Part shown: positions 13,393 through 32,430 of the stretch, in pieces
Layout of the letters: the number at the start of each line of letters is the position of its first letter
Numbering within the stretch: the first letter of the stretch is position 1
Assembly (NCBI GenBank): GCA_020348445.1
Contig: CP070751.1
Coordinates: 4,844,506 to 4,908,505 of the forward strand
Origin: Thermoplasmata archaeon
GTDB taxonomy: Archaea; Thermoplasmatota; Thermoplasmata; GCA-020350865
Direction of reading: 5' to 3'
DNA: 64,000 bases
The notes under the pieces: generated by a model
The model's input: the letters and a program-made list of their open reading frames with translations, nothing else
Database searches by the model: none
Told to the model about the DNA's origin: nothing
Program-made: the position numbers and the translations under genes

Positions 13393-16300
13393 CTATCCTT
13401 TTAAACCCTCCCATTCCCACATCCGCACTTCATGAACGGCCTCTACCAAACCAGTGATTTCTATTTCATCCCGTGCCCACAACCATATATCATCACCAGC
13501 CCACACCGCACCCGAGATCATTATATCGACTCCTCCCCATATCCTCACGTCATAACCAGCCCATACCGTACCTGCGACTTCCACTTTATCCTGTGCCCGC
13601 AAACACACGTCATAACTTGCACTGATATGACCTTGATCACCGGTATGCGTTTCCTCGGTAACATAAATCGAACCGTCCGCTTGTAGTGAGACATATGCAT
13701 TCTTCGCACCCGAACCGGTGCTTATATAGCCTACATTGATGTCTTCGTACTTGGATCTGAGCTTTATATTGTTGCCCATGGAGTTTAAATAAAGTACGTT
13801 GATCGTACCGTCTGCCGTTATTTCCATTTTGCCATTTACGACTAAGAAAAGATCCAGGTCACCTTTTACATTCAAATTCAGATTTGGTTCATTTACTTTA
13901 ATCAGGTCTCCTAAATCGTACTCAAGATTCAGGTTGCGATTGCGCTTACTGCCGATTTGACCACCAGCGAAAAGGATGCCCATATAACCGATGAGGTCAT
14001 CGTCCTTATCATACATATCTACCTCGCGGATATCACCCTCGGTAGCACATAGGCTAATTTGACCGTTAGTGCGGCCAACTGCGATATAGTCCACAAGAAT
14101 ATCTCCCTGAGTTGTCACCAAGCTGACATTACCTCCCGGTGAATCTATCTGTGACTCCACATAAAGGGCTGTGATGGTATTATCTGCAAGCAATCTGAAG
14201 GCACCGTTTGCAACGACCACTTCCTCCAGAACGAGCGCATCATTCTCTTCGATCCACAGGTCTCCCGGTCCAAACACCAGAGCGTTTAGGGTTGTCACTT
14301 CTGTTATGAGATAGACGTCAGCTCCTGCGTTTATATTCAGAACAGCAGCAAGAATCGGGATTTCATTAGTAGTATATATTCTGCCCTGCGCCGTCAAGGT
14401 AACGACGCCTACTGTTTGATCTGCAGAAAGTGAACCTGAATCGATTATTGTTATAGACTCCCCAGATGTCAAATCGAGAGCATACTGGGTTGTGACAGCT
14501 CCCTGCACCAGAATATCACCACCAGCAGTCACAGAAATTGACCCATCCACGGTCTCCAGGTCCTTAAGCAGGATATCATCGGCCTCAATCACCACTATGT
14601 CTAATCCGGCACTTGCTTCCAAAGTGTCCACCGCAGTATCCAGCACCATGGAGCCACCTGCAACGGCCACCAGATCTATGGCGATCACCTGGCCAACTGT
14701 GATGTTTCCATCTGCAAGCAGCTCCACAGTTTGTGCTACAATATTACCAGGCAGGTCTGTGATATCGCCATCAGCGGACAGCATTACCACCTGAGCCTCG
14801 ATCTGGCCAGCTTCGATATCACCAAGCGCATCAAGTGTTACATCACCTGACAGCGCCAACACCTCCACCGCTGAAATCGTACCACCTGCTGTCACCGAAA
14901 TCGATCCAGCTAGGCTCTCCAACTGTAACAGGGTGATGTCATCACTCTCAGTAACCACGATATCAAACCCAGCTGTCCCCATCAATGTTGCGACTGCTGT
15001 ATCTAGTATCATCGAGCCACCTGCAACTGCCACCAAGTCAATAGCCAGCACCTGGCTGATCGTTATGTTACCACCCGCAACCAGCTCCACAGACTGTGCT
15101 TCGATATTACCCACCAGGTCAGTGATATCGCCACCAGCAGTTAACATCACCATCTGGGCCTCAATCTGACCGGCTTGGATATCGCCAACCGCATCAAGCA
15201 TTACCTCACCAGATAGCGCCTGTACGTCCAACGCGGTAATCGTTCCCCCAGCAGTCACATATATTGATCCAGCTAAGCTAACCAACTGTGTCAAGATGAT
15301 GTCATCAGTCTCAGTAACCACTATATCACCAACAGCTATAGCCTCAAGGTTCACTACCTTAGTATCTAGTATCATATAGCCACCTGCATCGGCCACAAGA
15401 TCTATGGCCACTACCAGGCCAACTGTGATGTTACCATCTGCATCCAGTAATACCGTCTGTGCTTCAATATTACCCAGCAGGTCCGTGATATCGCCATCTG
15501 TATACAGCATCACCATCTGCGCCTCGATCTGACCGGCTTGGATCCCTCCAATGGCATCAAGTGTTACCTCACCAGACAGCGCTTGCACCTCCACCGCTGA
15601 AATCGTACCTCCTGCTGTCACCGAAATCGATTCAGCTAGGCTAACCAATTGCGTCAATATGATGTCATCAGTCTCTGTAACCACGATCTCGAGCCCGGCT
15701 GTTGCAATCATGGTTTCAACTGCCGTATCTAGCATCATGGAACCGCCTGCATCGGCAATCAAATCAATGGCCACCACCTGGCTAAGCGTGATGTTACCAT
15801 TCGCAACAAGCTCTACCGTCAGGGCTTCAATATTACCCGCTAGGTCCATGATATCGCCATCTGTATACAGCATCACCATTTGTGCCTCGATCTGGCCCGC
15901 TTCGATATCGCCAAGGGCATCAAGCGTTACGACACCTGAGAGCGCCATTACATCCAGCGCAGTAATCGTTCCTCCGGCTGTCACCGAGATCGATCCAGCA
16001 AGGCTAACTAACTGTGTCAGTGTGATATCATCGGTTTCCGTAACCACAATATCACCAACAGCTGTTGCCTCAAGGTTTACTACCGCTGTGTCCAGCAATA
16101 TAGAACCGCCCGCATCGGCCACCAGATCCATGGCCACCACCTGGCCAACCGCGATGTTACCACCTGCATCAAGCACTACCATCTGTGCTTCAATATTGCC
16201 TGCCAGGTCCGTGATATCGCTTCCCGTATACAGCATCACTATCTGTGCCCCGATCTGACCTGCTTCGATATCGCCAATTGCATCAAGCAATACAAAACCA

Positions 16301-31300: not shown

Positions 31301-32430
31301 GGCGAGTGACCCGGGCTAAAGAGACCCGAAACAACTACATCACTGTTGATGGTGCCACTTCCCTCAAGAGTATCGGAAGGTCTCACCGTGAGAATATCAT
31401 CAATGAATATGTCTCCAGATTCAGTTTTTCTCATCCGAAGTGTAAGACCGCTGTCATTTGGGTCATCCGAAATTGCCACCAAGATTTCGTCTGTTGGATC
31501 GGCAACTTCTAATGCATCTTCCAGATTGGTATAGGCGTCTTTCCAAGAGCTGCCGTCTCCGATCCCCGTGGCAGCCTGATGGACATAGAATATTCCCCTA
31601 TCTAGAATTGTTGTGAAGCTACTCTCTTGGGTGTAATAGGTGTAATCTTTGCCTACAGCTTTCATCCGGTAATAGTAAGTAGTCTGCTGAGTGAGACCTG
31701 TAATTGGCTCGCAAAAAGATCCAGTCGTGACCACTTTGCGGGGACAGGTTTCGTAGGCATAGGGTGGGTCTGGGTCTAATCCCCACTCAAAGGAAACGTC
31801 TAGGGGGCCGATTCCCTCAGGGTCGTTAACCTCACCGCTCAGAATAGCTGAGGATTCTGTGATGTCTGTGGCATCATCCACAGATATGAGGTTTTTATAG
31901 GAATAAAAAGGGTTTTCAGTGTCTACATTAATCTGCATTGCCGTAAACACAGATATGATCATTAAAAAGACCAAAAGAAATCCAATTACCTTATTTTTCT
32001 TTGATCTTTTTTGTATTGTTTTATAATATACAAGAGTTAAGCAAAGGGCCAGCACCATCATCAAGAGAACAAATACTATGTACATTGAACTTGCATTGGA
32101 TTTTTCCTCACCCGTTGTTTGGCTCCGAGTCTCTTTTGGTTGTGCAATCACATCGGAATTTTCCTCATCAGTTGTTTGGCTCTGGGTCTCTATTTGAGGA
32201 AGAATAGTAAATGCATAGGCCGTACCATCTATTTGTCTAGGGTCTCTTACCAGTATGATTTTGGATGAGGAGTCTACTCCTTTGTCATCTTCCTCAACAA
32301 CATCATCTAATGCATTAGCTTCCCTATCATCTTGGATAGCTACATTCCTCAACCCAACTACGGCAATCGCAACCACACACAAAACTACAATGAGCATTAA
32401 GCTCAAGATTTTTACACTTTTCTTTTTCAT
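13393..32430 (-). CDS. Giant (6345 aa) acidic repeat surface protein / putative adhesin with RTX Ca-binding repeats
   Basis: Uninterrupted 19-kb ORF with a GGGGG RBS. Three N-terminal hydrophobic segments, an FN3-like module, several families of internal repeats, about 40 GGxGxD-type nonapeptides, and no C-terminal TM anchor. Confidence 0.9.
14480..16400 (-). repeat. Five tandem ~360-bp (120-aa) repeats in the C-terminal part of the giant protein
   Basis: Equivalent positions recur near 14690, 15050, 15410, 15770 and 16130. Unit contains [25 protein letters not shown]; boundaries approximate. Confidence 0.88.
16915..18000 (-). repeat. RTX nonapeptide array built from a 108-bp (36-aa, four-nonapeptide) unit
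   Basis: Unit [48 protein letters not shown] recurs every 108 bp. 40 contiguous nonapeptides counted from GGDGDDVLY to GGANNDIYI. Confidence 0.95.
19440..23500 (-). repeat. About six dispersed ~100-aa domains (consensus like DFEL.I.A...G..YNDV.I.F.......VYD......L.I.VEDGV.TA..VA.AIN.EGTF)
   Basis: Copies at roughly 23500-23200, 23170-22860, 22640-22340, 21310-21010, 20990-20780 and 19750-19440, seen by eye in the translation. Confidence 0.75.
25900..28760 (-). repeat. Five tandem ~570-bp (~190-aa) repeats with EF-hand-like loops
   Basis: NGPYW anchor recurs near 28561, 27991, 27409, 26830 and 26267. Four copies carry DTN(D/N)N(G/S)EID(E/D)GE and the fifth [12 protein letters not shown]. Related, more diverged pairs continue to about 30800. 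Confidence 0.88.

Follow-up and report, generated by a model that had tools for sequence, protein, structure and literature searches.

A giant RTX protein of a Thermoplasmata archaeon best described as a re-headed member of a bacterial LEPR-XLL-type family

A single gene occupies positions 13393 to 32430 (minus strand) of the 64,000-nt stretch of DNA analyzed here, hereafter the window, which was taken from contig CP070751.1 (positions 4,844,506 to 4,908,505) of Thermoplasmata archaeon assembly GCA_020348445.1. Its product, hereafter the giant, is most aptly viewed as an archaeal member of a bacterial family of LEPR-XLL-type giant proteins, one fitted with another head. We consider it reasonably probable that the giant is a Ca2+-binding, cell-surface adhesin or fiber of this archaeon, with a body of a bacterial family and a head of the host, exported through Sec and tethered to the cell. 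What is most original here is the small head cassette, specific to the genus, and the evidence that heads have been swapped.

The giant is a real, intact gene of an uncultured sediment Thermoplasmata-type archaeon. Its open reading frame (ORF) is uninterrupted, and the ATG is located four codons past an upstream in-frame stop (open frame, 6349 amino acids [aa]), hence the N terminus is well defined. Among the 132 ORFs of at least 1500 aa in the host genome, a single 5,156,303-bp contig (C1) with an archaeal small-subunit rRNA match, it is the longest, and its product contains 10% Asp and 11.4% Gly and carries a net charge of -770. Neighboring genes in the window encode the diphthamide synthase Dph2, a CPxCG zinc-finger protein, and a NosD/PKD/CARDB giant. 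The rRNA match on a single 5.16 Mb contig, together with the Dph2 and zinc-finger genes, agrees with the archaeal context given in the preliminary description, and a recount bore out its account of the ORF itself, namely three N-terminal hydrophobic segments, a basic loop, 40 RTX units, and no C-terminal transmembrane (TM) segment. Only PF00353 of Pfam matched the giant (E 6.9e-78; 11 stretches), and Pfam and NCBIfam returned nothing outside the RTX block save two subthreshold, TM-driven matches, DUF4079 and DUF1774.

The body, in agreement with its earlier likening to LEPR-XLL giants, places the protein in a largely bacterial family. In a word-based search with the non-RTX body, the close relatives were P0002 (82% identity; 5989 aa), P0005 (54%), P0003 (53%; 'Thermoplasmata archaeon' at NCBI), and P0004 (~50%; 7490 aa), followed at 27 to 42% by bacterial giants from Phycisphaerae SM23_30, a Magnetococcales bacterium, and Synoicihabitans. 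From approximately aa 340 onward, the body was collinear with bacterial giants over several modules at 30 to 48% identity spanning thousands of residues, and BLAST and HMMER alignments extended over 700 to 1400 aa at 27 to 46% identity to P0008, P0012, P0013, P0016, P0017, P0023, and others. Several of these relatives possess LEPRILLSA-type leaders, and the LEPR-XLL leader model NF012209 scored 35 to 38 bits on P0012, P0013, and P0017 (cut-off 17); the same search gave no match on aa 1 to 2200 of the giant. An exhaustive HMMER search with the 789-aa core retrieved 193 cluster representatives among 1.84 billion proteins, nearly all of them giants or giant fragments, and an LE.R.LL motif was located near the start of ~14 core-bearing relatives. 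P0020, from a Verrucomicrobiota metagenome-assembled genome (MAG), was 48% identical in the core, and P0007 was encoded among genes for AraC, GerE, and sigma-70-type regulators, a bacterial context. Species-representative genomes, scanned with a 7-row alignment and one peptide pattern, contained core loci in Thermoplasmata (G003), Verrucomicrobiota MAG213, an unclassified bacterium, and a Planctomycetaceae bacterium, although the six loci recovered undersample the family. Within the short contigs examined, no HlyD or S2P export genes were found near the LEPR relatives P0040 and P0041, and our literature search for 'LEPR-XLL' returned only passing mentions.

LEPR-XLL giants (NF012209, 'LEPR-8K') of Planctomycetota, Verrucomicrobiota, and other bacteria have the same collinear modules as the giant (SPG/GLFGF, A and B repeats, core, second, and pre-RTX; Table 1), with RTX repeats in some. 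Unlike these proteins, the giant lacks the LEPR-XLL leader, has a three-TM archaeal head in its place, continues for ~1170 aa after the RTX block, including 121-aa repeats, and belongs to an archaeon without an outer membrane. The C-terminal modules also differ among orthologs, with 121-aa repeats in the giant and further RTX repeats followed by a LamG-like end (assigned by eye) in P0004 and P0005.

Three hydrophobic segments (TM1 to TM3; Table 1) were identified in the head using a 19-residue Kyte-Doolittle mean and a threshold of 2.0. No segment exceeded 2.0 beyond aa 171, nor did any in the last 300 aa, hence there is no C-terminal TM. The motif, TM segment, and basic tail of archaeosortase (PGF-CTERM) substrates were likewise absent, as no sorting-signal family matched the C-terminal third, where NCBIfam returned RTX-type families and two matches far below cut-off on Gly-rich repeats, and PGF-CTERM returned none. 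The head forms a cassette that occurs on otherwise different proteins. When the giant and its G003 ortholog were aligned with a PKD protein of 410 aa encoded in the genome of the giant and with a LamG-like protein from G004 (a label read from the sequence, with no family scan), 27 positions were invariant, 14 of which lie in the motif S-S-x3-I-L-V-x-D-P-x-Q-I-D-G-T-A-x2-F. The PKD protein (L015; C1:1664207-1665439, plus strand; ~410 aa) has the same three-TM cassette followed by PKD-like repeats, and its ORF extends into a run of masked bases (X). The head is conserved in P0002 (82% identity) and P0004 (~50%), and among core-bearing proteins a three-TM head was found only in P0001, P0002, and P0004. 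Full-length cassette matches were confined to this genus across 301 genomes of the class, the word-based search returned nothing for the cassette beyond fragments of orthologs, and two metagenome scans (with aa 1 to 480 and with the cassette alignment) returned no relative.

Loop 1 of the head is acidic and ~80 aa long. The charge pattern was the same in all five cassette proteins, with a basic N terminus, a loop 1 that is net acidic by 6 to 12, and an acidic tail past TM3, while the region of the TM2-TM3 loop held 6 to 10 Lys or Arg residues (those at the TM edges counted) and at most one Asp or Glu. Under the positive-inside rule, basic loops face the cytoplasm, and hydropathy and charge together fit a topology in which the N terminus would be inside, loop 1 outside, the basic loop inside, and ~6170 aa outside. 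The N-in, body-out orientation put forward previously is thus matched by the charge distribution of every cassette protein.

In the G302 ortholog, which comes from another class, the head consists of one TM and a ~150-aa domain, and this domain shares 41% identity (E 7e-32) with the head of the second RTX giant of the genome studied here, described below. Because the SPG/GLFGF module follows the LEPR leader in bacterial relatives and a TM head in both archaeal lineages, heads have been swapped at one and the same junction in both archaeal lineages, host-specific membrane heads taking the place of the bacterial leader. More speculatively, the signal-anchor, the external loop carrying the invariant motif LVxDPxQIDGTA, and the TM hairpin around a lysine-rich loop might together form an undescribed, portable archaeal export-and-anchoring signal, joined in this lineage to cargo with no other relation (the giant, a PKD protein, and a LamG-like protein), with the motif being read by a dedicated partner (the S-layer, a processing enzyme, or a sorting machine), and head exchange might be the general way in which archaea use giants acquired from bacteria; we regard this extension as doubtful, if worth stating. 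A close ortholog on a 26,834-bp JGI metagenome contig seems to be split (P0166/P0170). Its 195-aa, head-only product is annotated 'HemX', and its 2569-aa body lacks the first ~230 residues, with SPG/GLFGF at aa 108 to 288 compared to 340 to 520 in the giant; a frameshift, a sequencing error, or a real split could account for this arrangement.

Such a head could also serve for release rather than retention. Signal peptidase might cut past TM3 (or TM1 might be removed and the hairpin clipped), making the head a cleaved pro-region and the giant a soluble or matrix fiber. We consider this unlikely. Canonical small-x-small sites do follow TM3 in the paralogs, PMNVSA|NSPP in L015 and VSANVSA|EEDP in L016, and TM1 of L016 ends in AIA|HED. 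However, the giant and two orthologs have no good -3/-1 site past TM3 (TAMQINV, TVLQMNV, and VMLMKVS), with the best cut in the giant itself, TAMQI|NV, being poor, and a three-segment head with a conserved basic loop exceeds what a cleavable signal needs.

A maximum-likelihood tree of 61 core segments was built and midpoint rooted. Archaeal P0001 to P0005 formed one clade (Shimodaira-Hasegawa-like approximate likelihood ratio test [SH-aLRT] support 98), with P0019, which has no taxon label, as its sister (99). The next sister clade (96) comprised a Verrucomicrobiota protein, P0007, and two LEPR-bearing proteins, and the join of both had a support of 100. LEPR-bearing proteins occurred on both sides of the midpoint root. 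Distribution among archaea was patchy. The core was detected in two of 400 other genomes sampled from the phylum, both of family f36 in another class and at 56% identity. Within the genus of the giant, G003 and G004 carry the gene and it was not found in G001 and G002, and among 162 archaeal genera sampled the core was restricted to genus g1 and family f36. The most likely reading is that a bacterial family entered the Thermoplasmatota once or a few times, a direction that we infer from diversity and patchiness. Cross-domain acquisition, as suggested in the preliminary description, is thereby favored by both the core tree and the patchy archaeal distribution. Within the archaeal clade, P0004, which is from genus g1 and has the head of the giant, grouped with P0003, from family f36 of another class, and not with P0001 and P0002, which hints at mosaic recombination or archaeon-to-archaeon exchange of gene parts.

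The opposite history, in which the family arose in archaea or is very old, its bacterial copies coming from archaea or by vertical descent with no bacteria-to-archaea transfer, seems quite improbable to us. An unrooted tree has the archaea as one side of a branch, so that rooting there is formally possible, and GC content at the third codon position (GC3) of the giant is native-like. Against this, of the 193 core-bearing clusters, those outside the archaeal clade that are named or typed by context are bacterial, LEPR leaders are found on both sides of the midpoint root, and among the archaeal genera sampled the core was detected only in the two groups named above. Moreover, the archaeal core is 46 to 50% identical to Verrucomicrobiota and LEPR proteins, and bacterial members differ more among themselves.

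The RTX block consists of tandem GGxGxDxUx nonapeptides (PF00353), exactly 40 of them in unbroken 9-residue register, with one isolated unit at aa 4793. At the DNA level, a 108-bp unit is repeated 9.2 times in tandem with an 85% match, and P0002, the closest relative, has eight nonapeptides at the same place. Because of the short array in P0002 and the similarity of the DNA copies, the 40-unit array is a recent local tandem expansion. The block is not near the C terminus, since 1173 residues including further repeats follow the last nonapeptide; in the bacterial relative P0007, the RTX block is ~100 aa from the end. RTX repeats are uncommon in the phylum but not unique to this genome, 9 of 301 sampled genomes containing them, and our literature search yielded no work on RTX proteins from Thermoplasmata.

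RTX proteins are normally exported by Gram-negative type I secretion systems (T1SSs) through a C-terminal signal and are classically substrates of ABC exporters. The whole genome, 35.3 kb of which reads N, was scrutinized with profiles of the export components. No match was obtained to TIGR01843 (HlyD) or PF02321 (TolC/OEP), and TIGR01846 (HlyB) matched through its ATPase domain only, at no more than 108 bits compared to a cut-off of 726. The genome thus lacks dedicated HlyB, HlyD, and TolC-type genes for type I secretion, extending beyond the window what had been noted earlier for it. An ABC ATPase gene (32801-33508, plus strand) and a gene for a 1198-aa MacB/FtsX-type permease (33525-37121, plus strand) adjoin the giant divergently. 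A second MacB-type permease of 1011 aa is encoded at 91-3126 (plus strand), and both permeases have very large extracytoplasmic MacB_PCD regions.

Export of the giant by this divergent pair, through a type I-like or MacB-like route, is hardly probable. The pair lies on the opposite strand, beginning 371 bp upstream of the ATG of the giant, and the ABC dependence of classical RTX proteins would suit such a route. However, the pairing was not conserved at the G003 ortholog, which is flanked by TP_methylase, PKD, and DHH-CID (RecJ/Cdc45-like) genes with no ABC gene in the 5.7 kb upstream, where the contig ends, and a functional linkage of MacB/ABC genes to the giant was rejected on this ground. 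Furthermore, the second MacB-type permease is linked to no giant, HlyD and TolC genes are absent from the genome, the RTX block is far from the C terminus, and the giant has its own N-terminal TM head.

Upstream, a ~200-nt 5' leader that ends at the ATG of the giant belongs to a family of 11 genome copies detected with nhmmer, of which 8 end 1 to 8 nt before a start codon, and these 8 precede proteins with an N-terminal signal or anchor. In the window, copies are located at 32431-32669 (minus strand) and 43455-43695 (plus strand), directly upstream of the giant and of a 2914-aa beta-helix/PKD giant, respectively; the others are near C1:2622063, 2339064, 4627189, 448035, 3041510, 2327000, 1513689, 1112368, and 3650850. 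Common blocks were, in order, TTTTATAGCCA, AAAAAAG..G.GC, ATTCTA, TTTGGCTGA, and then a G-rich site. The leader could represent a shared promoter and long 5' untranslated region for secretory-protein genes.

The gene had appeared by eye to be more GC-rich than its flanks, and calculation agreed, with a GC content of 0.479 compared to 0.39 to 0.42 in the flanks and 0.415 in the genome. The excess was in codon position 1, where GC (0.565) was at the 96th percentile, reflecting Gly, Asp, Glu, Ala, and Val. GC3 (0.481) was at the 77th percentile of 1549 ORFs (genome mean 0.431, SD 0.069). Because the excess is in codon position 1, and hence mainly a matter of amino acid composition, and GC3 is unremarkable, the GC excess does not point to a foreign source, and high GC was rejected as a sign of transfer. 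The GC excess over the flanks and the bacterial nature of the closest characterized relatives might suggest an assembly chimera or contamination, with a bacterial gene joined into an archaeal contig, yet this is very unlikely, and the least probable alternative of all, because the head cassette has a paralog elsewhere in the genome (1664207-1665439), 3.2 Mb away, the 5' leader abutting the ATG is a native multicopy element, and orthologs with the same head lie between archaeal genes in independent assemblies of the same genus (G003 and G004), with GC3 also inside the genome range.

Sec-dependent, cotranslational export with N-terminal anchoring would be the simplest reading of these data. TM1 would direct the growing polypeptide to the Sec translocon, a hairpin of TM2 and TM3 would leave the basic loop on the cytoplasmic side, and TM3 would restart translocation, such that ~6170 residues would be threaded out cotranslationally. 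Outside the cell, Ca2+ would fold the RTX beta-roll and the DxDxDG or EF-hand-like loops of the A and B repeats, stiffening the stalk. The head would keep the giant tethered, the 121-aa repeat array would form the distal end, and no T1SS would be involved. Its most likely role is that of a Ca2+-stiffened, N-terminally anchored surface fiber or adhesin, as suggested by its architecture.

Several points weigh against this account. The adhesin or fiber role was read from architecture alone, the non-RTX modules have no known function, and the modeled core resembles only generic large beta-barrels. The topology was derived from hydropathy and charge counts only, and in two paralogous cassettes TM3 terminates at a signal-peptidase-like site (NVSA|N or VSA|E), so the head could be a cleaved pro-region. 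As to origin, the direction of transfer is not proven. Metagenome proteins without names make up most leaves of the core tree, the tree was rooted at its midpoint, and a single branch separates the archaeal clade from all other leaves. GC3 shows no sign of recent import.

Compared to the T1SS-exported RTX adhesins LapA, SiiE, and MpIBP/BapA, as these families are generally understood, the giant is similar in its size, acidic repeat stalk, Ca2+-dependent RTX repeats, predicted N-terminal retention with the distal end pointing outward, and likely adhesive role. Substrates of type I secretion leave the cell C terminus first. In contrast, the genome of the giant has no T1SS genes, its RTX block is not near the C terminus, it would be held by integral TM helices rather than by a TolC plug, and its Sec export would proceed from N to C terminus. 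Other archaeal surface giants, such as the 2914-aa protein of the window (43696-52440), are similarly large, N-anchored or secreted repeat proteins, and this one has a 5' leader of the same family. However, they have no sequence relation to the body of the giant and use NosD/beta-helix, PKD, and CARDB domains instead. Halomucin of Haloquadratum is a further archaeal surface giant of this kind.

The second RTX giant of the genome (C1:5128012-5142834, minus strand) has 4940 aa, a single N-terminal TM, a DUF4347 domain (E 2.5e-55), RTX repeats (E 8e-64), and a GC content of 0.475, and it adjoins a TPR/AAA_16 STAND-like gene. Like the giant, it is archaeal and combines an N-terminal TM with RTX repeats, although identity between the two (~30%) is limited to the RTX block, its body is unrelated (DUF4347 type), and its head is different.

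These data offer a clear case of a ~19-kb gene for a bacterial-type giant surface protein in an archaeon. They place an RTX beta-roll in a cell without type I secretion and without an outer membrane, where Ca2+-driven folding would have to suit N-to-C Sec export. For annotation, they define modules of the almost unstudied LEPR-XLL giant family and contribute a small new N-terminal cassette.

Table 1. Features of the giant gene and its 5' leader, in window coordinates
Feature	Position	Strand	Basis or remark
Whole gene	13393..32430	-	6345 aa plus stop
5' leader/promoter region, ~200-240 nt ending at ATG	32431..32669	-	Native 11-copy family
N-terminal head cassette, aa 1-171	31918..32430	-	Basic N terminus, TM1, acidic loop, TM2, basic loop, TM3
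TM1, aa 8-27, signal-anchor or signal-peptide-like	32350..32409	-	Hydropathy, charge
Conserved motif, aa 54-74, predicted external loop	32209..32271	-	14/21 positions invariant across four aligned cassettes
TM2, aa 116-137	32020..32085	-	Hydropathy, charge
Basic loop, aa 138-148, predicted cytoplasmic	31987..32019	-	Sequence, charge
TM3, aa 149-168; ectodomain begins after	31927..31986	-	Hydropathy, charge
FN3-like domain, aa 185-275, part of lineage-specific head	31606..31878	-	Sequence pattern only; no Pfam match
SPGxSPG...GLFGF module, aa 340-520	30871..31413	-	First part common to bacterial LEPR-XLL giants
Repeat family A, ~170 aa x 4, aa 480-1210	28801..30993	-	DxDxDG-type loops
Repeat family B, ~192 aa x 5, aa 1211-2184	25879..28800	-	55-85% mutual identity
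Nonrepetitive conserved core, 789 aa, aa 2185-2973	23512..25878	-	193 cluster representatives match
Middle region, aa 2974-4340	19411..23511	-	Several ~110-aa alpha/beta domains; beta-rich repeats ~122 aa
Pre-RTX module, aa 4341-4812, incl. PPPPPPNLA...LRLNMG..A..R	17995..19410	-	Collinear with bacterial relatives
RTX block, 40 nonapeptides as 36-aa super-repeats, aa 4813-5172	16915..17994	-	PF00353, register count
Post-RTX C-terminal extension, aa 5173-6345	13396..16914	-	About six 121-aa repeats at aa 5300-6050

Within the repeat families, A and B repeats carry DxDxDG or EF-hand-like loops, and D.[DN].[DN]G matched 11 times in the giant, with some matches overlapping. Three of the five B units matched D.[DN].[DN]G..D (the EF-hand-like DTNDNGEID loop). 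B repeats were ~30 to 36% identical to bacterial giants and returned only unannotated bacterial clusters in the ESM Atlas, and an AlphaFold2 model of two B repeats, with a predicted local distance difference test (pLDDT) score of 50.2, was too poor for use. The AlphaFold2 model of the core (pLDDT 82.8; predicted TM-score 0.66) showed long strands arranged antiparallel in a large sheet, together with a helical insert. Fold searches with this model (Foldseek, TM-score of at most 0.19; VIA, Z of at most 9.4 with a root-mean-square deviation of 6 to 15 A) revealed only a long-strand meander shared with outer-membrane barrels, a class that includes SprA, LptD, TonB-dependent receptors, and porins, and because these matches are generic, with low TM-scores and high deviations, no function follows for the core. 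A second module within the middle region (aa 3360-3695) was collinear with bacterial relatives, and the post-RTX 121-aa repeats formed, at the DNA level, a 363-bp array of 4.7 copies (Tandem Repeats Finder).

The genome (G000) has an exceptional load of giant genes, with its 132 ORFs of at least 1500 aa in 5.16 Mb, others of which encode 6014, 5179, 4775, 4370, and 4237 aa. Elsewhere in the window, four tandem zinc-type alcohol dehydrogenase/MDR paralogs with small genes interleaved are located at 4412-10348 (plus strand).

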